The notes under the pieces are model-generated. The model saw only the letters and a list, made by a program, of their open reading frames with translations, made no database searches and had not been told where the DNA came from. A stretch of DNA of 64,000 nt from Minisyncoccota bacterium (GTDB taxonomy: Bacteria; Patescibacteriota; Minisyncoccia; Phycocordibacterales; UBA918). This document shows, piece after piece, positions 4,462 to 62,356 of the stretch. The stretch covers positions 71,476-135,475 of the forward strand of contig JAIPIB010000001.1 of the NCBI GenBank assembly GCA_021734905.1, written 5' to 3'. A program made the position numbers and the translations under genes. Numbering within the stretch: the first letter of the stretch is position 1; each line of letters opens with the position of its first letter.

Positions 4462-4760
4462 ATGAATTTTTAATACAGCTAGTTAACTGGTTGAGACGTT
4501 CCCATATCGTTAAGTCGCTGTTCAAGTCTGTCGACACCATCGCCGATTTGTGCAAGATCACTTTGGAACTGGACAGTAAGATTGTAAGTAAAAAATGCAA
4601 ACCCCACAATGAGAGTCCAGGCTATATATGGAAAGATTTTGTGTGATTCAAGCGTGTGTTTCATATGTGAGTAGTATAGCAAAGCATGTTTGTATATGTC
4701 GTATTGAGATGTTAGTATCCTTCATGGAATCGATACTTTGATTAAGAGAGGAGGCAGTAT

Positions 4761-8942: not shown

Positions 8943-9206
8943 ATGTCGAAAGAATCATTTGTTTTTGTCCTTGGTGGAATTGTTTTTGTGACGCCGTTTT
9001 TGGGTGTTCCGAGTGATTACAAGGAGTGGATATTCATTGTAAGTGGAGTCCTCCTGATGATTGCCGGATATCGGTTGAGGAGAATGGCGTTTTTAAAATC
9101 TCTCGAGCATGAGAGCGGTGAACGTCGTGGAGAGGTCTTTGTCGAAAATAATCATTTTGAATTAGAAAAGAAAGAAGTTGTCCAACACGAGGAAATACAT
9201 GTATGA
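8943..9206 (+). CDS. Small membrane protein (87 aa)
   Basis: Two TM helices followed by an acidic tail. The ATGA stop/start overlap with the next gene suggests co-translation. Confidence 0.45.
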   Translation: MSKESFVFVLGGIVFVTPFLGVPSDYKEWIFIVSGVLLMIAGYRLRRMAFLKSLEHESGERRGEVFVENNHFELEKKEVVQHEEIHV

Positions 9207-10498
9207 AATGGATGTCTGTTGCAGGAATTGTTGGCGGAGGATTTTACATCCTTTCGTACGTCACTTTGCCACAACTTACAGCTCTTGAGTATTCTAGTCC
9301 CCAAAATTTTGAACCGACCGAAATTGTACAAGAGGAGATAAAACAAGTGGAGCAAAAGGACGAACGAGAGATTATCTTGCATGAGCCACTCCCTGAAGCT
9401 GTTCGGGCAATTTACATGACTTCCTGTGTTGCTGGTACGACTGACTTTAGGAATAGACTCGTGTCATTAATTGATGACACTGAGATCAATGCTGTTGTCA
9501 TAGATATTAAAGATTATTCTGGTACGATCTCTTTTCCTCCTCTGAGTGAAGCCTGGAAGTCTGCGTGGACTGATGCAAAATGCGGCACACGAGATATGAA
9601 GGAGTTTATTCATACCCTTCACGAAAAAGGTATTTTTGTGATTGGCCGTATTACAGTATTTCAAGATCCATTTTATACAAAAATAAGGCCTGAGTTAGCT
9701 GTTACAAAAGCATCTGATGGATCAGTTTGGCATGATCGAAAAGGTCTTTCATTTATTGATGTTGGTTCGCATGAATATTGGGACCATATAGTGGAGCTTT
9801 CTTCAGACGCATATAATATTGGTTTTGATGAACTCAATTTTGATTACGTCAGATATCCCTCAGATGGGAATATGCAGGATATCGCATTTCCAAATAGTCT
9901 GAAAAGTGAATACGGGGCTGACAAACAAGCAAACCTTGAAGCATTCTTTAAATATCTCAACGAACAGTTAGATGTTGAATCTAAGTTCAGTGAATACAAA
10001 CATGAAAATACTGGGCGTGCTTCAACGACCCCGTGGACTTCTGTAGATTTGTTTGGGATGACAACGACCAATTTTGATGATCTCTCAATTGGGCAAGTGC
10101 AGGATCGTGCTGCTCCGTATTTTGATTTTGTGGCACCAATGGTGTATCCGTCTCACTACCCAAATAGTTTCTTAGGGTTAGGTAATCCCAATGATTATCC
10201 GTATAAGGTGGTCAACTATGTGATGCAAGCAGGCGTAAACCGTATGATCTCTTCAACGACGCCGATGCAAGGATTTCTTCATGAACGAATTGGAACATCA
10301 ACGCCAGCACTCTACAAAAAACCTGTCTATACCGCTGAAAAATTCCGCACCTGGATACAGGATTTTGATTATGGAGGAGATTATGATGCGACTGATGTAC
10401 GCAATCAGATCCAAGCAAGCTACGATGCTGGTGTTAAAAGTTTTATGATTTGGGCACCATCGAATATATATACCCGCGGAGCACTTAATGTTGAGTAG
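9203..10498 (+). CDS. Membrane-anchored putative glycoside hydrolase-like TIM-barrel protein (DUF4015-like)
   Basis: N-terminal TM. AIYMTS...AVVIDIKDYSG and GFDELNFDYVRYP resemble the putative glycosyl hydrolase domain PF13200. Assigned from memory only. Confidence 0.5.
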   Translation: MKWMSVAGIVGGGFYILSYVTLPQLTALEYSSPQNFEPTEIVQEEIKQVEQKDEREIILHEPLPEAVRAIYMTSCVAGTTDFRNRLVSLIDDTEINAVVIDIKDYSGTISFPPLSEAWKSAWTDAKCGTRDMKEFIHTLHEKGIFVIGRITVFQDPFYTKIRPELAVTKASDGSVWHDRKGLSFIDVGSHEYWDHIVELSSDAYNIGFDELNFDYVRYPSDGNMQDIAFPNSLKSEYGADKQANLEAFFKYLNEQLDVESKFSEYKHENTGRASTTPWTSVDLFGMTTTNFDDLSIGQVQDRAAPYFDFVAPMVYPSHYPNSFLGLGNPNDYPYKVVNYVMQAGVNRMISSTTPMQGFLHERIGTSTPALYKKPVYTAEKFRTWIQDFDYGGDYDATDVRNQIQASYDAGVKSFMIWAPSNIYTRGALNVE

Positions 10499-10615
10499 TG
10501 TCAATTTCGAAATTCTGGCATATTTTCCAATGTGTGGATAAATATCTAGTTGATTTAGTATGATGTTATACTTTGGTTAAGCTTCATTTTATGATCTTGA
10601 TTAGGGAGGTTGATT

Positions 10616-10928: not shown

Positions 10929-12938
10929 TTGGTCCACTTCTGTTATACTTTTCGTATGTCATTTGATCCAAACAGAATTAACTTTTTTGCACAAACTGAT
11001 GCCCGTGGCAAAAATGTCCAGTTTGGTATTAAGGCAAAGGATCGGCAACGTCACGTTTATGTGATCGGGAAAACCGGAATGGGTAAGTCAACGCTTCTCG
11101 AAAATATGGCCGTGCAAGATATCCAGAATGGGGAAGGGATTGCCTTTATTGACCCACACGGCTCTGCAGTTGAAAACCTCCTCAATTATATTCCCGAACA
11201 CCGTGTGAAGGACGTTCTCTATTTTTCACCATCTGATACTGAGTGTCCAGTTTCTTTTAATATTATGGAGGATGTTGGCCCAGACAAGAGACATCTCGTA
11301 GTCTCAGGACTCATGTCTGTATTCAAGAAGATATTTGTTGATCAGTGGTCAGCACGTATGGAATATATTCTTTCAAACACACTTCTCGCACTTCTTGAAT
11401 ATCCGGACTCGACGCTTCTTGGTGTAAATAGAATGCTCTCTGATAAAGATTACCGAAAGCTTGTTGTTGATAATGTGAGAGACCCTGGTGTAAAAGCCTT
11501 TTGGGTAGATGAGTTTGCGAAATATAATGAGCGTTACATGCAGGAGGCGGGGGATGCTATTAAAAATAAAATCGGACAGTTTACTGCGAATCCTATCATT
11601 CGGAATATCATTGGCCAGCCAAGGTCGAGTTTTGACCTTCGAATGATTATGGATGAGAAGAAGATCCTTATTATGAACCTTTCAAAAGGACTCATTGGGG
11701 AAACAAATGCAACACTTTTAGGCTCCATGCTCACAACGCGCATCTATCTTGCTGCCATGAGTCGTGCTGATCTTCCTCCTGAAAAAATGCGTGACATGCC
11801 AAACTTCTACTTTTTTGTGGATGAGTTTCAATCCTTTGCTAATGCTTCCTTTGCAAATATTCTCTCTGAGGCACGTAAATATCACCTCAATCTTACGATT
11901 GCTAACCAATATATTGATCAAATGGAAGAAGAGATTCGAAATGCAGTGTTTGGAAACGTTGGGACGACCATTACATTTCGCGTAGGACCATTTGATGCTG
12001 AAGTACTTGAGACAGTATTTACACCACAATTTTTAGCTCCTGATATTATCAACCTGAGTTTTGCACAAATTTATCTCACGCTCATGATTGATGGTATTGG
12101 ATCACAACCATTCTCTGCGACCACTCTTCCACCAATTGCTCCGCCTCAAACCTCTTGCAAAAATATGGCTCTTGCATCAAGTAGGGCGCAGTTTACGAAG
12201 CCACGTGCTGAAGTTGAGGAATTAATTCATAAATTCCACGAGCCTATTGTCAAGCCAAAAAAAGTTGAGAGAGTAGAGACGATTATTCCACGAGCAGTCT
12301 ATTCATCAGAAAAAAAGAAAGATGTGCCAAGGGAAGCGGTATCAATTCAAAAACCAATAATTCAAACAACTCCTGCAGCACTTACAGAGCAAGGAGCACG
12401 ATCAGTCCCTGAAAAAGCACAAGGTTTTCGAACGGAACAACGGCGAACACAGACTGACAGTGGAGCGCCCGCACGAAGAGAGATGAGCGCTCGGCCAAGG
12501 CAGCAGGTTCAAACATCTGTGCCGAGCAGGGGTCCAGAAAAGCCCAAGTCTCCAATAAAGGCTGATGTTCAGTCTGAGGATCTTAGGACTGTCCTCAAGC
12601 GACTTGCAGCGACTGAGAAGTCAAATAATCCTGGGGATTATAATCACGAAAAAGGTTTTGGGAAAGAGAAGCGAGATCAGCCAGAAAAACCAGAACTTAA
12701 GCGTGCACTGGAGTCACTTGTAAAAAAAGAAGATGGTACAGTACAGAACAATTCTAAGTCAGAAACAGGAAATGAGACTCAGACAAATCAAGAAACAGAG
12801 GCGTTTGTGAACAGAAATACAAATGAGTTAGCAAAAAGTAATTCTACACCTGAGGAGGGTGTTGAGAAAAAACACATTACACCGAAAGAGCTTGAACGAA
12901 TGATGCGTATCACCACAAGTGATAAACCTCCGATATAG
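10929..12938 (+). CDS. P-loop ATPase of the TraD/TraG/VirD4 (type IV coupling protein)-like / DUF87 family with a roughly 300-aa low-complexity C-terminal tail
   Basis: Walker A GKTGMGKST and FIDPHG. TraG-D_C-like block FYFFVDEFQSFANASFANILSEARKYHLNLTIANQYIDQ...FGNVGTTITFRVGPFDAEVLE. Residues about 370-669 are Pro/Ser/Glu/Lys/Gln-rich with no predicted fold. The true start may be the Met at about 10956. Confidence 0.6.
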   Translation: MVHFCYTFRMSFDPNRINFFAQTDARGKNVQFGIKAKDRQRHVYVIGKTGMGKSTLLENMAVQDIQNGEGIAFIDPHGSAVENLLNYIPEHRVKDVLYFSPSDTECPVSFNIMEDVGPDKRHLVVSGLMSVFKKIFVDQWSARMEYILSNTLLALLEYPDSTLLGVNRMLSDKDYRKLVVDNVRDPGVKAFWVDEFAKYNERYMQEAGDAIKNKIGQFTANPIIRNIIGQPRSSFDLRMIMDEKKILIMNLSKGLIGETNATLLGSMLTTRIYLAAMSRADLPPEKMRDMPNFYFFVDEFQSFANASFANILSEARKYHLNLTIANQYIDQMEEEIRNAVFGNVGTTITFRVGPFDAEVLETVFTPQFLAPDIINLSFAQIYLTLMIDGIGSQPFSATTLPPIAPPQTSCKNMALASSRAQFTKPRAEVEELIHKFHEPIVKPKKVERVETIIPRAVYSSEKKKDVPREAVSIQKPIIQTTPAALTEQGARSVPEKAQGFRTEQRRTQTDSGAPARREMSARPRQQVQTSVPSRGPEKPKSPIKADVQSEDLRTVLKRLAATEKSNNPGDYNHEKGFGKEKRDQPEKPELKRALESLVKKEDGTVQNNSKSETGNETQTNQETEAFVNRNTNELAKSNSTPEEGVEKKHITPKELERMMRITTSDKPPI

Positions 12939-57161: not shown

Positions 57162-58259
57162 GTGTACATGAATAATTTTAATATTCAACAAAATATTCCG
57201 CTTGCACAACATACCACGCTTGGTATTGGGGGCATGGCGGAATATTTTGTTGAAGTGAAAACAGAGTCTGAACTCATGGAAGCTCTCACATGGGCAGGTA
57301 ATCAAAATTTGGCCGTTACAGTCCTTGGTGGAGGATCGAATGTTCTTATTGCAGATGAAGGTGTGTCTGGTGTTGTCATTAAGATGAGTTGCGGCGGAAT
57401 TTTTTTTAAGGAAGATGATGATGGAGTAAGTATACTTGCTAGTGTGTCTGCTGGTGAATCATGGGACCGTTTTGTAGAAGCCACAGCTGAAAGAGCTCTA
57501 TGGGGACTTGAAAATCTTTCAGGTATTCCGGGACGCGTTGGCGCCGCACCAGTTCAGAATATTAACGCATACGGCGTTTCTGTAGGTGATGTGATTGAAC
57601 GAGTTCATGCAATCAATATTTCAACAAGAGAAAAAGTAATATTTACTAAAGAAGAATGCAAGTTCGCATATAGGGATAGTTTTTTTAAAACAGAAAAAGG
57701 AAGAGAGTACATCATTACATCTGTACAGTTTCGCTTAACTTCTCAGAACGACATACATACAACATATAAAAGTTCTTCACAAAGCATTGAGCAATATTTT
57801 TTGAAAAATAAAATTACCAGTCCGAATTCTGAAGACGTTCGGAGAGCAGTCCTTTTTGTTCGTAAAAACATCGGCATGCTTGATGGAATCTATAAATCAG
57901 CAGGGTCATTCTTTAAAAACATCGTCCTTGGATTTGAAGAATTCAAAGAACTCCAAAAAATTATTGCGAATGAATATCAAGATAAATCAGAAATATTTGC
58001 ACCATGGCATTGGATACTTGCAGACGGGACAGTGAAAGTTTCAACAGCATTTCTTATGGAGTGTACAGAATACAATAAAGCATATGGCACTAAAAGTAAG
58101 AATGGAGTAGTAGGTATTTCTCCGTTGCACACACTCTCAATCATCAATTATGGAAATGCGCGATCGAGAGATGTAAAAATTTTCTCTGATAATATTTGTG
58201 ATGTAATCCAAAAAAAATTTGGAGTTGAAATTGAAAAAGAAGTTTGCTATCTCGAATAA
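57162..58259 (+). CDS. murB: UDP-N-acetylenolpyruvoylglucosamine reductase
   Basis: FAD-binding GGGSNVL, GLENLSGIPGRVGAAPVQNINAYGV, KEECKFAYRDSFFK and AGSFFKN align with E. coli MurB. Confidence 0.85.
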   Translation: MYMNNFNIQQNIPLAQHTTLGIGGMAEYFVEVKTESELMEALTWAGNQNLAVTVLGGGSNVLIADEGVSGVVIKMSCGGIFFKEDDDGVSILASVSAGESWDRFVEATAERALWGLENLSGIPGRVGAAPVQNINAYGVSVGDVIERVHAINISTREKVIFTKEECKFAYRDSFFKTEKGREYIITSVQFRLTSQNDIHTTYKSSSQSIEQYFLKNKITSPNSEDVRRAVLFVRKNIGMLDGIYKSAGSFFKNIVLGFEEFKELQKIIANEYQDKSEIFAPWHWILADGTVKVSTAFLMECTEYNKAYGTKSKNGVVGISPLHTLSIINYGNARSRDVKIFSDNICDVIQKKFGVEIEKEVCYLE

Positions 58260-58453
58260 AATAATTTTATAAAAATATTTCATTCAAATTTTTTTTACAA
58301 AAATAATTATCCACACATTGTTTGAAATTTTTTCTTGTGTAATTTTTTCTATCACTGATAATGTAGTTAAGCAGATGTTCTCTTTGTACAAGCTCTTTGA
58401 GAAGAGAATAATGCGGTCGAATTGTTAATGGTAAAAATTTTCAATTTCATATC

Positions 58454-58621
58454 ATGCCAGCAAAAAAGAAAGTTGCCAAAAAAGTTGCTAAGAAAGTTGT
58501 AAAAAAGAAAGTTGCAAAAAAAGTTGCAAAAAAGACAACTAAGAAAGTAGCTAAGAAGGCTCCAGCAAAAAAGAAAGTTGCTAAGAAGACCGCAAAACGA
58601 AAGACAGCAAAACGAGCATAG
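58454..58621 (+). CDS. Histone-H1-like lysine/alanine-rich basic mini-protein (55 aa)
   Basis: MPAKKKVAKKVAKKVVKKKVAKKVAKKTTKKVAKKAPAKKKVAKKTAKRKTAKRA, built of (AKKV)n repeats. Followed at 58651-58690 by a canonical hairpin and T8 terminator. The antisense ORF 58367..58666 is an artefact. Confidence 0.55.
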   Translation: MPAKKKVAKKVAKKVVKKKVAKKVAKKTTKKVAKKAPAKKKVAKKTAKRKTAKRA

Positions 58622-58649
58622 TCTCAGGAGTAGCGTGTCTTCCAACACA

Positions 58650-58690
58650 CAAAAACACTTTTCCATCGGAAAAGTGTTTTTGTTTTTTTT
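58650..58690 (+). terminator. Rho-independent terminator
   Basis: aaaaacacttttcc-atcg-gaaaagtgttttt followed by gtttttttt. Confidence 0.8.
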
Positions 58691-58854
58691 GGCAAGGTAT
58701 TTAAATTAAATTTCGCATACGAAACCTTTTAGATTAAGGTTTTTATAAGGATTTTCATTTGATCTGCCCATTTCTTATTAGGTAGGGATTCATGGTATGC
58801 TAGGTTACATTATTGTCGTAATGATTTTGAAAGAGTGTAGCGTAATGCGTATAT

Positions 58855-61398
58855 ATGTCATTTTTAGATAGATTTTTCAGTCCTCCATACGAAAGGGAAC
58901 TCAAGGAAGCGAAAGCACTTGTTCCTCAAATTAATGCTCTTGAAAGCGAAGTGTCAGTAATGAGTGACGAACAACTCCTTGGTCGTTCGGATGAATTACG
59001 TGAGAAAGTTCGAGAAGGAGAATCACTCGATAGCATTCTCCCGATTGCTTTTGCACTTGTGCGGGAGGTAAGTAAACGAACACTTGGTCAGAGACATTAC
59101 GATGAACAACTTATTGGAGGAATTATCTTGCATCGTGGAAAGATTACTGAGATGCGAACAGGTGAAGGAAAAACACTTGTCGGGACACTTCCTGCATATT
59201 TGAATGCACTTACAGGAAAAGGTGTTCATGTGGTGACGGTCAATGATTATCTTGCACGACGTGACTCGGTGTGGATGGGGCAGATATATGCAGCCCTGGG
59301 ACTTACTGTGGGTGTTACCAATCAGAATGGGTCATATCTCTATGATCCGGGACACGTTGATCAAGATGCGGTGCGTGACACGCTCGGATCATTTAAAGTT
59401 GTGTATGAGTTCCTTCGTCCATGTACGCGTAAAGAAGCATACGAGGCAGATATTACATACGGAACGAATAATGAATTTGGTTTTGATTACCTGCGAGATA
59501 ATATTGAGTTCGAAGTTTCAAATCTAAGACAGCGAGGGCATGCGTATGCAATCATTGATGAGGTAGACTCAATTTTGATTGACGAGGCGCGTACACCGCT
59601 TATTATTTCTGCGCCTTCTCAAGATTCTGAAAATTTATATGCTATGTTTGCACAGATTGCTGAGAGGCTTACGCTCGACAAAGATTATACTGTCGATGAA
59701 AAACTTAAAAGTGCAACACTTACTGACGCTGGTGTTGAGGCTGCAGAGAAGATGCTTGGTGTCGATAATATTTACACCGATAAAGGTATTAAGTATGTAC
59801 ATCATCTTGAGACAGCTGTTCGAGCAAAAGCATTATATACACGAGATAAAGAATACGTTGTAAAAGACAATGAAGTCGTTATTGTGGATGAGTTTACAGG
59901 AAGGCTCCAGCCAGGACGTCGGTGGTCAGACGGACTGCATCAGGCAATAGAGGCGAGAGAAGGTGTATCAATCCAAAAAGAATCCCACACATACGCCTCG
60001 ATTACTTTCCAGAATTATTTTAGGATGTACGATAAGATTTCTGGAATGACCGGTACAGCACTCACGTCACAAGAGGAATTTTATTCAGTGTATAAGCTTG
60101 ATGTTATACCTGTTCCGACACACAGAGATATAAAACGTATCGATCACAATGACCTCATTTTTCAAAATGAGCGAGGAAAAATAACTGCTATAATTAAAAA
60201 AGTAAAGGAGGTTACTGAGAAGGGGCAGCCGTTACTTATCGGAACAGCAGCGATCGATAAAAATGAGATGTTGAGCGTTGAGCTTACAAAAGCTGGTGTT
60301 TTGCATGAAATGCTTAACGCAAAGAACCATGAACGAGAAGGGGAAATTATTGCTGAGGCAGGAAAGAAAGGTCGTGTAACACTTGCGACAAACATGGCTG
60401 GTCGTGGCGTAGATATCAAGCTCGGTGGTATCAATGCGACAGAAGCAGAAGCAGAGGAAGTCAAAGCGCTTGGTGGACTTTTTGTCTTAGGAACTGAACG
60501 GCATGAAGCGCGACGAATTGATAACCAGCTTCGAGGACGATCAGGACGACAAGGCGACCCTGGAGAAACACAGTTCTATGTATCGATGGACGATTCACTG
60601 ATGCGTGTATTTGCAAATGATACGGTGAAAAATATGATGGGTAGGTTTGGTATCCCTGAGGATCAGCCAATTGAGAATAGTATGATCACGAGATCACTTG
60701 AATCTGCTCAGAAGAAGATCGAAGGATTCCACTTTGACTCCAGAAAGCATGTTCTTGCGTATGATGATGTCTTGAATCAACAAAGGCATATTATCTATAA
60801 AAAGCGGACAAAACTCCTCCATGGGTCAATTGACGACGTTAGAGAGCTCATAGGTGAGCTTGTGATGTTTATTCCAGAGATTGATACCGTTATTCAAGCT
60901 CGAGAGAAAGAATTTGGCCAGGAGAAATGGTATGAAATTATCCGAAGGCTCATGCTTCAGGTGAACGACATTCTTTGGGTAGAACATCTCGAGGTCATGC
61001 AGCACACACGTTCGAGTGTAAGCTTGCGTGCGTACGGGCAACAGGACCCACTCATTGAATATCGTAAAGAGGGAATGAGATTGTTTCGTGAGATGCAGGA
61101 AGTTTCTTTGCATAGAGTTGCTGAACTGATACCGACGGTTCGTATTGAAGCAGTCGAAAAAGAAGAGGAGGAGCTTAAGAAGGCGCAAGCGCATCTTGCG
61201 TTGGGAGGTGGAGCTCTTGAGACTGAGGTAAAGAACGGTCAGCGATCTTCGGGGATGCCTATTCATAAGGAAATGAAAGTTGGTAGAAATGAATTCGTCA
61301 CCATAACAAATGGTACCGAGACAGAAACAGTTAAATTTAAAAAAGCTGAAGAAAGACTCCGATCGGGTGATTGGAAAGTTGTAGAGAAGGTTGTATAG
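58855..61398 (+). CDS. secA: Preprotein translocase ATPase subunit SecA
   Basis: MSFLDRFFSPPYERELK N-terminus. GKITEMRTGEGKTLV Walker A. DEVDSILIDEARTPLIIS. Helical scaffold and wing domains. Confidence 0.9.
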   Translation: MSFLDRFFSPPYERELKEAKALVPQINALESEVSVMSDEQLLGRSDELREKVREGESLDSILPIAFALVREVSKRTLGQRHYDEQLIGGIILHRGKITEMRTGEGKTLVGTLPAYLNALTGKGVHVVTVNDYLARRDSVWMGQIYAALGLTVGVTNQNGSYLYDPGHVDQDAVRDTLGSFKVVYEFLRPCTRKEAYEADITYGTNNEFGFDYLRDNIEFEVSNLRQRGHAYAIIDEVDSILIDEARTPLIISAPSQDSENLYAMFAQIAERLTLDKDYTVDEKLKSATLTDAGVEAAEKMLGVDNIYTDKGIKYVHHLETAVRAKALYTRDKEYVVKDNEVVIVDEFTGRLQPGRRWSDGLHQAIEAREGVSIQKESHTYASITFQNYFRMYDKISGMTGTALTSQEEFYSVYKLDVIPVPTHRDIKRIDHNDLIFQNERGKITAIIKKVKEVTEKGQPLLIGTAAIDKNEMLSVELTKAGVLHEMLNAKNHEREGEIIAEAGKKGRVTLATNMAGRGVDIKLGGINATEAEAEEVKALGGLFVLGTERHEARRIDNQLRGRSGRQGDPGETQFYVSMDDSLMRVFANDTVKNMMGRFGIPEDQPIENSMITRSLESAQKKIEGFHFDSRKHVLAYDDVLNQQRHIIYKKRTKLLHGSIDDVRELIGELVMFIPEIDTVIQAREKEFGQEKWYEIIRRLMLQVNDILWVEHLEVMQHTRSSVSLRAYGQQDPLIEYRKEGMRLFREMQEVSLHRVAELIPTVRIEAVEKEEEELKKAQAHLALGGGALETEVKNGQRSSGMPIHKEMKVGRNEFVTITNGTETETVKFKKAEERLRSGDWKVVEKVV

Positions 61399-61456: not shown

Positions 61457-61551
61457 ATTAACCAAACCAGAGAAATTAAAAGCTATAGACATATTTCCGT
61501 TATGTGGTATAATATAAAGAGATAAGAGATATAACATTGAGGAGGTGTGAT

Positions 61552-61956
61552 ATGACTTTTTGTTCATTACATGTGCCACAGTTTGACCACGTCGAGACGT
61601 TACGATTAAGGCTGCTTGCGCAAAGGCGTTTGAACGGGTGGAGAGGAAAAGCTTCATCACTTGTAAGTCAGGCAGTTCTCGCTGTCATGCGGGGAGTACT
61701 CGATCGTAAGGGGGTTACTCCAAGTGAGGGAGCTATTACCATAAAAGAAAGGAGAGGAAAAATACGACCTGAATTTATGGCCACGTATTTCTCGGGTGGG
61801 GCAACCGTGACGTTTCTCGTTATTCCTGACACTGAGCGTGCTTGTGCAAGTGTTCAGGTTCATTCATACGAGACACACGTTCTTGCCTTTTGGCTCGCAC
61901 TTGAGGTTGGTCAGGGGTGGACTGTAGAAAACCTCTACCATAGCTCAAATGAATAA
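61552..61956 (+). CDS. Hypothetical protein (134 aa)
   Basis: GAGGAGG SD 6 nt before ATG 61552. Canonical terminator acccgtcggaa-ttt-ttccgacgggt plus T7 at 61957-61990. Confidence 0.45.
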   Translation: MTFCSLHVPQFDHVETLRLRLLAQRRLNGWRGKASSLVSQAVLAVMRGVLDRKGVTPSEGAITIKERRGKIRPEFMATYFSGGATVTFLVIPDTERACASVQVHSYETHVLAFWLALEVGQGWTVENLYHSSNE

Positions 61957-61990
61957 ACCCGTCGGAATTTTTCCGACGGGTGTTTTTTAT
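61957..61990 (+). terminator. Rho-independent terminator
   Basis: 11-bp GC-rich stem with a T-run. Confidence 0.8.
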
Positions 61991-62023
61991 GGAAAACAAA
62001 CAGAAAAAGTATATACTAATAAT

Positions 62024-62356
62024 ATGAATTTCTTCGCAAGACTTATTATAAGTGCAGCAACACTTATGCTGGTGACCTACATTGTCCCAGGGATCACGGT
62101 AGATAGCTTCTATACAGCGCTTGTTGCAGCTTTAGCCCTCGGGCTTTTGAATGCTGTAGTTCGCCCCGTGCTCGTTATCTTAACGCTACCAATTACTATT
62201 CTCACACTCGGTATTTTCATTTTTATTATTAATGCGAGTTTGTTTCTCTTTGTTGCATCATTCGTTGACGGGTTTGAAGTCTCCGGTCTTGTGAGTGCAC
62301 TCATTGGTTCAATACTTGTAAGTATCATCAGTGGTATCGCAAACAAGCTTTCGTAA
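62024..62356 (+). CDS. DUF360 / phage-holin-family-4-like small membrane protein
   Basis: LLNAVVRPVLVILTLPITILTLGIFIFIINASLF...GFEVSG pattern with 4 TM helices. Start taken at the internal Met to avoid the terminator. Confidence 0.5.
   Translation: MNFFARLIISAATLMLVTYIVPGITVDSFYTALVAALALGLLNAVVRPVLVILTLPITILTLGIFIFIINASLFLFVASFVDGFEVSGLVSALIGSILVSIISGIANKLS

Follow-up and report, generated by a model that had tools for sequence, protein, structure and literature searches.

The window, that is, the whole stretch of 64,000 nucleotides analyzed here, carries at 58454..58621 of the forward strand a mini-gene that starts with ATG and codes for a peptide of 55 amino acids, MPAKKKVAKKVAKKVVKKKVAKKVAKKTTKKVAKKAPAKKKVAKKTAKRKTAKRA, an acid-free polycation formed by [A/V/T]KK[A/V/T] repeats. 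A preliminary description of the locus had reported a frame of 55 codons, about half of them for lysine, with a composition of the histone H1 C-terminal tail type, and was accurate on both counts: the peptide contains 26 Lys (47%) and two Arg residues (K+R, 51%), is rich in Lys, Ala, Val and Thr, and has neither Asp nor Glu (computed net charge +28, mass 6.0 kDa, pI 12). Among the 651 ORFs of at least 30 amino acids in the window it is the sole case in which K+R exceeds 33%. The DNA of the mini-gene shows tandem repeats with periods of 12, 27 and 30 nt, and the codons it uses are those preferred by the genome. AlphaFold2 predicts a single helix from residue 3 to 54 (pLDDT 87) with no tertiary or globular fold, which is weak evidence, the input being one low-complexity sequence. 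In-silico digestion with trypsin yields only fragments of one to four residues. The mini-gene was missing from the ORF track of the window, probably because 55 amino acids fall below the 60-amino-acid default of the lister; the gene caller of a public collection does annotate it. The track held an ORF of 99 amino acids on the opposite strand (58367..58666), which had been called spurious, and rightly so, as it is a codon-for-codon mirror of the mini-gene with a pN/pS of 1.3 to infinity. Its ATG sits within the stem of the terminator (see below), and the frame stays open because the reverse complements of AAR, GCN and GTN codons cannot give stop codons. In the orthologous locus L134, a gene caller wrongly picked this antisense strand.

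Eighteen loci of the clade, that of the window included, were examined in detail and all of them carry the mini-ORF; in the 17 other Paceibacteria loci a K/R-rich mini-ORF is found upstream of secA, mostly after murB. Even some close SecA relatives are without the mini-gene: L006 and L009 lack it at the corresponding position. All 18 mini-proteins are devoid of Asp and Glu and have a net charge of +10 to +44, with a repeat period of three to six residues, mostly four or five. Repeat number had been suspected to vary among relatives, and it is indeed highly variable (16–80 amino acids), the frame always being kept; the mini-gene of L125, for instance, has 4.9 copies of a 27-nt unit that are 98% identical. 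Charge, termini (MPAKKK... ...TAKRK) and position are conserved, and length and repeat period are not. In the frame of the mini-gene, pN/pS was 0.04–0.16 (6/6 pairs), as against 0.6–4.3 in the shifted frames, and close pairs showed ratios of synonymous to non-synonymous changes of 7:2, 9:2, 18:6, 8:2 and 15:6, with indels that were all in-frame. Moreover, in the L135 mini-protein Lys residues were replaced by Arg through multi-nucleotide changes, so that the charge was kept. Judged by these substitution patterns, the mini-gene is real, as initially supposed, and is translated and under purifying selection as a protein.

An intrinsic terminator (58649..58691, forward strand) begins 28 nt past the stop codon of the mini-gene. 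It consists of a 16-bp stem (58649..58683) with a 3-nt loop, followed by a run of eight T residues, and is as canonical as first claimed, forming fully in the MFE and centroid folds (z = −5.7). By a strict rule, a hairpin and a T-run follow the stop codon in 16 of the 18 loci; in the remaining two, T-runs follow hairpins that are imperfect. High expression of the gene, which had been read from the terminator only, is not supported as stated. Further downstream lies an extended −10-like motif, TGGTATGCT (58793..58801, forward strand), which is unique in the window and is the putative promoter of secA; it bounds the mini-gene and is not part of it. Among the 10 close loci that extend as far as secA, nine have TG[GC]TATGCT between the terminator and secA, and L135 has the variant TGCTATAGT.

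For the promoter that the preliminary description had assigned to the mini-gene, the evidence was divided. A simple scan for the sigma-70 consensus gave four sites versus 4.7 expected, which is no better than chance. Phylogenetic footprinting, however, revealed a −35-like hexamer, TTGTGT (58335..58340), and a −10 hexamer, GATAAT (58357..58362), both on the forward strand and separated by a T-rich spacer of 16 nt. Within the two hexamers, TTGT and ATAAT are invariant (8/8 aligned loci). The scanner missed the −35 element because only three of its six positions match TTGACA. At the equivalent position, [GC]ATAAT is found in 14 of the 18 loci. With this conserved promoter region at one end and the terminator at the other, the view of the mini-gene as a separate transcription unit is upheld.

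A perfect DnaA-box 9-mer, TTATCCACA, is located at 58307..58315 of the forward strand, about −62 to −54 from the predicted transcription start, and is invariant in alignment A1. Only two perfect DnaA boxes are present within the whole window. A perfect TTATCCACA on the forward strand is found at the mini-gene promoter in 15 of the 18 orthologous loci, the more distant L004, L007 and L008 among them (the box of L005 has one mismatch), and the distance from the box to the −10 element is 49–50 nt in every one of the 14 loci with both elements. Over the 205 kb of the ortholog loci, 15 of the 18 perfect boxes fall at the mini-gene promoter. Like genes of a DnaA regulon, the mini-gene thus has at its promoter a consensus box (TTATNCACA; the box of this lineage may differ) that is kept in its orthologs. 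We infer that DnaA would bind at 58307..58315; the site could also be bound by another protein. An oriC reading of the box was rejected: the box is single (most loci have one box only, at one mismatch or fewer, in the intergenic region), the cumulative GC skew climbs monotonically across the site with no inflection, and there is no dnaA nearby.

Between promoter and coding region lies a conserved 5′ leader of about 85 nt (58369..58453, forward strand), the start of transcription near 58369 being predicted from the position of the −10 element. Conservation of the leader starts with an invariant AAGCA right after the −10. A hairpin (58371..58414, forward strand) begins 2 nt after the start so placed, and is formed by an outer helix (58371–58373/58412–58414) and an inner helix of 9 bp (58377–58385/58401–58409), with an invariant GCTCTTT in the loop. 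In nine sequences, 88.9% of the cells pair, versus 43–67% with slid partners, and the covariation score of 0.410 (versus 0.279 ± 0.037) was reached in none of 500 shuffles; with 12 sequences, pairing was 92.4% and covariation 0.361 versus 0.242. RNAalifold identified five pairs with compensatory changes, and the presence of G-U substitutions in the helix favors RNA pairing over a DNA operator. The block ATGCGGTCGA (58411..58420, forward strand) is identical in 12/12 leaders, and its GGTCGA core, or GGTCGG, is found in the distant loci L004, L007, L010 and L011. This conservation is at the nucleotide level, because the third codon positions of a uORF-like frame are invariant; a tiny leader uORF (58411–58428) was therefore rejected as a conserved peptide, its end being variable as well. 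A covariance model of the leader, R1, matched only upstream of mini-ORFs, was single-copy in the window, detected three loci outside its training set (E = 4e-12 to 4e-25) and gave no match on 723 kb of control sequence. R1 misses the distant loci L004, L005, L007, L008, L010 and L011; the leaders of L004, L005, L007 and L008 have diverged. When viral contigs were searched for the signature of the leader, 78 chance matches came up, none of which passed the covariance model, and Rfam 15 gave no match at E ≤ 1 over the leader and weak, sub-threshold matches on the terminator only. The leader has no Shine–Dalgarno (SD) site, and an A/U-rich stretch precedes the AUG; an SD-like motif is found in just seven of the 53 genes of the window, so that an SD-less start is normal for this genome. 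Comparison of the loci demonstrates the conservation of the promoter, the box, the leader hairpin and the terminator, as drawn from the alignments, and the conserved regulatory module of box, promoter and leader hairpin is new here; it had been missed in the preliminary description.

Searches of Pfam, NCBIfam, PHROGs and the PDB sequences, and phmmer against 5.8 billion proteins, returned nothing significant for the mini-protein. The composition correction applied in phmmer and HMM searches suppresses even its match to itself, and makes the mini-gene invisible to HMM searches. The likeness to Hc1, Hc2 and BpH proposed earlier holds in composition but not in homology: against Pfam HC2 (PF07382) the protein of the window scored 7.6 bits (E = 5) and the best ortholog 11.7 bits (E = 0.28), with a cut-off of 40 bits; NCBIfam hist_H1_lk_Burk (NF038053) gave 7.1 bits (E = 6.1; cut-off 80 bits), and neither Hc1 (PF07432) nor the linker histone globular domain (PF00538) matched even at E ≤ 10. 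None of eight mini-proteins was on record in an exact-sequence cluster look-up, and we found no account in the literature of Lys-rich mini-proteins in CPR bacteria. Since no Pfam or NCBIfam family claims the mini-protein, its likeness to H1 tails, Hc2 and BpH is compositional only, and with homology to characterized H1-like families undetected, only its composition hints at its function.

We propose, with a confidence somewhat above even, that the locus holds a free-standing micro-gene for an H1-tail-like polycation, with the nucleoid as its most likely target and its synthesis coupled to DnaA. In the segment 58307..58691, a Paceibacteria (CPR) bacterium would have a micro-gene that is self-contained and monocistronic, and in which a sigma-70-type promoter (TTGTGT-16-GATAAT) with a fixed upstream DnaA box would give rise to an mRNA predicted to measure about 323 nt, made up of the 5′ stem-loop, the SD-less, A/U-rich start, the coding region for the 55-residue peptide and the strong intrinsic terminator. 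The 5′ hairpin would presumably stabilize this mRNA. The peptide would most likely bind nucleic acid non-specifically through its charge, with the helix forming on binding. As its ligand we infer chromosomal DNA as most probable, the role being nucleoid compaction or charge neutralization, and a nucleoid function is plausible for a protein of this composition. Synthesis of the peptide would be tied to DnaA and hence to the replication status of the cell. In a bolder version, which we consider possible but doubtful, the product would be a tail-only “micro-histone” or protamine-like polycation, wired to DnaA by the rigid box and tuned by the structured leader. If so, a peptide of 16–80 residues would link compaction or charge neutralization, or even DnaA/oriC activity, to the replication cycle, and the locus would represent a chromatin component and a regulatory circuit undescribed in any bacterium.

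The same micro-protein might instead have RNA or the ribosome as its ligand, and act as a disordered, RNA-binding translation activator like PhaF, as an RNA chaperone or, in a lineage whose ribosomes are reduced, as a polycation loosely associated with the ribosome, perhaps with autoregulation through its leader. We take this alternative seriously but hold it to be rather unlikely. Through its KPAA repeats, PhaF binds to specific mRNAs, upstream of the SD, and activates their translation (PMC12818456). A structured leader with invariant single-stranded blocks would suit autoregulation, as in ribosomal-protein operons, the mini-ORF of L011 adjoins an HPF-like ribosome-hibernation gene, and with SD sites so scarce, helpers of non-SD initiation are conceivable. 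However, a length of 16–80 amino acids and a drifting period are ill-suited to a defined ribosomal binding pocket, no ribosomal-protein family of Pfam or NCBIfam matches, and our literature search found no CPR ribosome, or structure thereof, carrying such a protein. Moreover, the DnaA-box promoter indicates the replication cycle, not translation.

The linkage to a DnaA box would be left unexplained if the mini-protein were an AlgP-like protein associated with polyphosphate or other polyanions, or an encoded substitute for polyamines with no specific nucleic-acid role. The conservation of charge alone would suit any polyanion, and the H1-like AlgP localizes to and spaces polyphosphate granules (PMC9239181). 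Yet the neighborhood has no evident polyphosphate kinase or granule genes, and AlgP and PhaF have extra domains, whereas the mini-protein is tail only, so that we regard this reading as improbable. Because of the roles of PhaF (RNA) and AlgP (polyphosphate), it would not be safe to take DNA as the ligand for granted.

Given its short length, strong positive charge and predicted helix, the mini-protein could also be read as a cationic peptide that acts on membranes or is exported, and that serves an episymbiont as an antimicrobial or toxin-like agent against its host. The episymbiotic lifestyle of CPR bacteria also speaks for it. The amphipathic antimicrobial-peptide reading was rejected because the helical hydrophobic moment (100 degrees) is low, 0.05–0.26 in 16 of the 18 orthologs, far under that of amphipathic antimicrobial peptides. 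Ala and Val are the only hydrophobic residues, the mini-protein lacks a signal or leader peptide, and no transporter or immunity gene adjoins the mini-gene; we consider an exported peptide very unlikely.

Even less probable, in our view, is that the mini-ORF acts in cis on secA, as a leader peptide or attenuator in the style of SecM, MifM or the trp leader that would work by stalling ribosomes at Lys codons and by means of the terminator behind them. Lys runs can stall ribosomes, and this Lys-rich ORF lies directly upstream of secA and on the same strand in all loci, with a terminator that starts 28 nt after its stop codon. Nevertheless, secA has its own conserved extended −10 past the terminator (9/10 close loci), which argues that the mini-ORF is not its leader peptide; the terminator folds fully, with no competing antiterminator predicted, and the distance from the stop codon to secA ranges from 77 to 446 nt, with the hpf-like gene lying between mini-ORF and secA in L011. 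The mini-protein has no SecM-like signal peptide, and strong purifying selection acts on composition over 16–80 amino acids, a length and sequence too variable for a short arrest motif. The attenuator reading was rejected on these grounds. Finally, to the view that the locus is not protein-coding, but a chance ORF in an A-rich repeat, a non-coding RNA or the complement of a genuine 99-residue antisense ORF, we give next to no credence: low complexity, the lack of HMMER homologs and the strand called in L134 might suggest it, but it is effectively refuted by both the pN/pS frame test and the antisense test, and is at odds with the charge-conserving Lys-to-Arg replacements, the conserved position of the ATG after the leader, the orientation of promoter and terminator for the forward strand and the presence of the mini-ORF in 18/18 loci.

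A large part of the diversity of bacteria belongs to the CPR, or Patescibacteria, and to our knowledge next to nothing has been learned about how DNA is packaged and regulated in their tiny cells. A gene of this kind is easily lost from view, being shorter than common length cut-offs for ORFs; gene callers sometimes place it on the opposite strand, and proteomics based on trypsin cannot read its product. If it codes for an abundant, DnaA-controlled counter-ion of the nucleoid or of nucleic acid, it would provide a simple, synthesizable handle on the chromosome biology of uncultivated bacteria, and would further exemplify a conserved micro-protein served by a dedicated cis-regulatory module. 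Even on a conservative reading, the locus shows an independent origin of H1-tail-like polycations in one more deep lineage of bacteria, where they take a minimal, tail-only form.

Among known systems, the closest in kind are Hc2 (HctB) of Chlamydia and the BpH type of Bordetella and Burkholderia, which likewise are formed by Lys/Ala-rich tandem repeats with no globular histone fold, and in which, as in the mini-protein, repeat number and length vary between strains and species. The H1-like proteins of Bordetella and Burkholderia bind and condense DNA. Hc2 (165–237 amino acids) has length-variable, H1-like K/A repeats and also binds and condenses DNA (PMC2848022). With its Lys/Ala-rich short tandem repeats in variable copy number (orthologs of 16–80 amino acids) the mini-protein shares a trait of the HC2 type, but it is three to 10 times smaller (16–80 versus about 165–240 amino acids), belongs to another phylum and has a different repeat unit, [A/V/T]KK[A/V/T], which drifts to periods of five to six residues. 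A DnaA-box promoter with a conserved leader was not found reported for Hc2/BpH-type genes in our literature search.

The C-terminal domain of eukaryotic H1 shares with the mini-protein a composition of K, A, P, T/S and V, nearly devoid of acidic residues. Free H1 tails are disordered and turn helical when they bind DNA, acting by charge neutralization, and the H1 of kinetoplastids also lacks a globular domain. Unlike H1, the mini-protein has no winged-helix domain (no PF00538 match), no nucleosomes as targets and no S/TPKK phosphorylation motif. Convergent low-complexity sequence, not common ancestry, is almost certainly behind the resemblance. The KPAA tails of Pseudomonas PhaF and AlgP likewise consist of disordered, Lys/Ala-rich repeats, with copy numbers that differ widely from species to species, and the activity of the KPAA repeats depends on their lysines (PMC12818456); these repeats, however, are tails on other domains.

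As to its control, the mini-gene resembles DnaA-regulated promoters outside oriC, such as that of dnaA itself (autoregulation) and that of dnaX-ebfC of Borrelia, an operon for a nucleoid protein that DnaA co-regulates (PMC9879097), in having a consensus box beside the promoter. It differs from both in that the box is single and rigidly placed 49–50 nt from the −10 element, roughly where class I activators bind, and in that the product is a micro-protein.

The lysine-rich mini-gene upstream of secA lies where the preliminary description had placed it, at 58454..58621 on the + strand. The ORF starts with ATG and has 55 codons; its product, MPAKKKVAKKVAKKVVKKKVAKKVAKKTTKKVAKKAPAKKKVAKKTAKRKTAKRA, contains 26 Lys and two Arg residues and no Asp or Glu (6.0 kDa, pI 12, net charge +28). 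Lys and Arg make up 51% of the residues, and no other of the window's 651 ORFs (30 amino acids or longer) exceeds 33%. At the DNA level the gene consists of degenerate tandem repeats whose periods are 12, 27 and 30 nt. It sits inside a 595-nt gap of 30% GC between the genes for MurB (57162..58259) and SecA (58855..61398), in a window of about 40% GC with dense genes, mostly on the + strand, and a monotonic GC skew. MurB is identical to the protein of an NCBI 'Candidatus Pacebacteria' MAG, with only 58% identity to the MurB that comes next, and the best match of SecA, at 69%, is from a Candidatus Kaiserbacteria MAG. These matches assign the window to the Patescibacteria (CPR), class Paceibacteria.

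The product gave no significant match in Pfam, NCBIfam, PHROGs or PDB sequences, and a phmmer search of 5.8 billion proteins returned nothing at E <= 0.001, despite 4771 word-sharing candidates. Because standard homology tools are blind to this protein, conservation was tested through synteny: loci carrying the flanking SecA and MurB genes were fetched and then scanned by a composition rule. A K/R-rich mini-ORF was found immediately 5' of secA, on the same strand, in 17 further loci (L003, L004, L005, L007, L008, L010, L011, L125, L126 and L128-L135), in most of which it is preceded by murB; the sample thus comprises 18 loci from a single clade. L127 stops at murB and is uninformative, and in two SecA relatives (L006 and L009) murB abuts secA and the slot holds no mini-ORF. 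The gene order kept across the clade is sulfate adenylyltransferase/APS kinase, a methyltransferase (some loci), Wzy_C-TPR, murB, mini-gene and secA, followed by a small unknown ORF (some loci), a Phage_holin_4_2 family gene and a VTT-domain protein (window 61537-62356; L125-L135). In Saccharimonadia and other distant Patescibacteria (L012-L041) an HPF/RaiA-like ribosome-hibernation gene fills the slot 5' of secA, and in L011 (3283-3854) the order is mini-ORF, hpf-like gene, secA.

In all six close pairs compared (Nei-Gojobori, nucleotide-aligned), pN/pS was 0.04-0.16 in the annotated frame and 0.6-4.3 in the two shifted frames. Synonymous and non-synonymous differences between close pairs stand at 7:2, 9:2, 18:6, 8:2 and 15:6, and the indels that separate such pairs keep the frame. 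In L135 many Lys residues are replaced by Arg through multi-nucleotide codon changes, with conservation of charge. Lastly, the codons match those preferred by the genome, and the remaining two forward frames are closed. At the level of sequence, these four tests (pN/pS, substitutions and indels, Lys to Arg replacement, codon choice) show the ORF to be translated and to evolve under selection. The 99-aa antisense ORF (58367..58666, - strand), previously judged spurious, does exist, but with a codon-aligned pN/pS of 1.3 to infinity it is a mirror artefact, since the reverse complements of AAR, GCN, GTN and ACN codons hold no stops; the pN/pS tests rule out a non-coding or antisense gene. In L134 (4793-4990, - strand) the public annotation has a 65-aa antisense mirror ORF instead of the K-rich gene on the + strand, a wrong-strand call that is probably a recurring annotation artefact for this family.

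All 18 orthologs are devoid of acidic residues, have net charges between +10 and +44 and draw essentially on the residues M, K, R, A, V, T, P and S. MPAKKK or MAAKKK recurs at the N-terminus and TAKRK or TAKRA at the C-terminus, and the dominant spacing of basic residues is 3-6, most commonly 4 or 5. Repeat number, suspected earlier to vary among relatives, does so: the proteins range from 16 to 80 aa, and L125 has 4.9 copies, 98% identical, of a 27-nt unit, a sign of recent expansion. Selection thus acts on the termini, the density of charge and the lack of acidic residues, not on length or a precise fold, and this suits a non-specific polyanion binder. AlphaFold2, run on the single sequence, predicted one helix (residues 3-54; pLDDT 87, pTM 0.40) and no tertiary fold. 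H1 tails pass from coil to helix, and the model, weak evidence as it is, fits that behaviour.

The regulatory region, whose DnaA box and structured leader had escaped the preliminary description, is also conserved. In three pairs, upstream non-coding identity exceeds coding identity (96% vs 87%, 87% vs 81% and 77% vs 72%), and eight aligned loci, with MurB proteins just 52-58% identical to the window's, share several invariant blocks, at a DnaA-box 9-mer, at the -35/-10 elements and at the start of the leader. The mini-gene does have its own promoter region, as proposed from the sequence: the -35 hexamer TTGTGT (58335-58340, +; TTGT invariant) and the -10 hexamer GATAAT (58357-58362, +; ATAAT invariant) are separated by a 16-nt spacer. 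A consensus scanner overlooked this promoter because the -35 agrees at only three of six positions. The invariant 9-mer, TTATCCACA (58307-58315, +), is a DnaA box of textbook form and spans about -62 to -54 relative to a transcription start predicted near 58369. A perfect box is found on the + strand in 15 of the 18 loci and lies 49-50 nt 5' of [GC]ATAAT in 14/14 loci having both, including the distant L004, L007 and L008 (SecA 58-62% identical); across 205 kb of orthologous loci there are 18 perfect boxes, 15 of them at the mini-gene promoter. We infer that DnaA would bind at 58307-58315, on a textbook consensus that may not be the lineage's own. The single box, the lack of a skew inflection and the absence of dnaA nearby argue against a replication origin. 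The only other perfect box in the window (10533-10541, -) falls between two unrelated genes 430 nt apart, one DUF4015 glycosyl-hydrolase-like (9203..10498) and the other TrwB/type IV coupling-protein-like (10929..12938). In L133 (4613-4647), a second, inverted near-perfect box (CGTGGATAA) forms with the conserved one a 16-bp inverted repeat just past murB, which might represent a pair of boxes or, alternatively, the terminator of murB.

The predicted leader (58369-58453, +) begins at an invariant AAGCA and contains a hairpin, detected with RNAalifold by covariation, with an outer helix (58371-73 with 58412-14) and an inner 9-bp helix (58377-85 with 58401-09). Five pairs show compensatory changes. 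Of the cells in nine sequences, 88.9% pair, a share that falls to 43-67% when the partners are slid, and the covariation score of 0.410 (0.279+-0.037 for shuffles) was matched by 0/500 shuffles; with 12 sequences, in an alignment fitted to a covariance model, 92.4% of cells pair. The covariation derives from 9-12 related sequences; several of the substitutions are of the G-U kind, which speaks for pairing in RNA rather than for a palindrome in DNA. A covariance model of the region (R1), built on the same nine leaders, matched only upstream of mini-ORFs, once in the window, and found three loci outside its training set (E = 4e-25, 2e-23 and 4e-12), each immediately 5' of a K/R-rich ORF; it had no match in 723 kb of control sequence in which two of the model's invariant blocks occur by chance, and Rfam holds no family for the element. 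Two further blocks are invariant, the loop GCTCTTT and ATGCGGTCGA (58411-58420), which opens a tiny uORF-like frame, ATG CGG TCG AAT TGT TAA (58411-58428). The first 10 nt of this frame are invariant across 12 loci, wobble positions included, while its end varies, so that the constraint is at the nucleotide level. No SD precedes the mini-gene AUG, as is usual in this genome: an SD-like motif stands before just 7 of the window's 53 long ORFs, and initiation seems to be largely SD-independent, frequently with A/U-rich sequence upstream. 5'-terminal stem-loops are established stabilisers of mRNA; this hairpin, at about 2 nt from the predicted 5' end, may be one of them.

The terminator claimed in the preliminary description is indeed strong: 28 nt past the stop codon, a 16-pair stem with a 3-nt loop (58649..58683, +) precedes T8 and is complete in the MFE fold as well as in the centroid fold (z = -5.7). 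By a strict rule, 16 of the 18 loci have a hairpin and T-run after the mini-ORF, and the other two have them in imperfect form. Just 5' of the terminator is a small second hairpin, GUGUC-UUCC/UUCU-(G)ACAC (window 58632-58648; same relative position in L128 and L133). Downstream, TG[GC]TATGCT (58793-58801, +), unique in the window, resembles an extended -10; it lies between terminator and secA, 20-108 nt from the secA start, in nine of the ten close loci that reach secA (including L125, L126 and L128-L133), with a variant, TGCTATAGT, in L135, and is likely secA's own promoter. With these boundaries the mini-gene is a monocistronic unit, and its predicted mRNA measures about 323 nt. In L126 (~4590-4640), L131 (~4590-4635) and L134 (~4593-4640), the stretch directly past murB and 5' of the DnaA box holds long palindromes, near-perfect and GC-anchored, whose loops are A/T runs and which look like murB terminators; the window lacks a counterpart, so that transcription could run on there from murB into the mini-gene.

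On balance, we lean towards a free-standing, H1-tail-like polycation that would bind nucleic acid through its charge, most probably the chromosome, and whose synthesis would be coupled to DnaA. There are precedents for both parts: Hc2 is a DNA-binding protein with Lys-rich repeats and variable length (PMC2848022), and in Borrelia DnaA co-regulates a nucleoid-protein operon (PMC9879097). The main alternative, a considerably less probable one, is that the product binds RNA or the ribosome; PhaF has a KPAA tail by which it binds mRNAs and activates their translation (PMC12818456), and autoregulation would be in keeping with the conserved leader. Binding of polyphosphate or of polyanions in general, as for AlgP (PMC9239181), is a minor alternative, as is a membrane-active cationic peptide, against which stand the low helical hydrophobic moment (0.05-0.26 in 16 of the 18 orthologs) and the lack of an export signal. 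A secA leader peptide or attenuator was rejected, as secA appears to have its own promoter downstream of the terminator.

A chromosome-directed polycation would functionally resemble the bacterial H1-like proteins (Hc2, BpH, Burkholderia type) and the H1 C-tail, and the likeness first noted is one of composition. It does not extend to family membership: the mini-gene proteins score 7.6-11.7 bits with the HC2 model (PF07382; cut-off 40) and the window's product 7.1 bits with NF038053 (cut-off 80), and the latter has no globular H1 or Hc1 domain. We found no description in the literature of its regulatory module, a fixed-distance DnaA box with a structured leader. Compared with the known bacterial H1-like proteins, the product is 3-10 times smaller, consists of the tail only and belongs to a different phylum.
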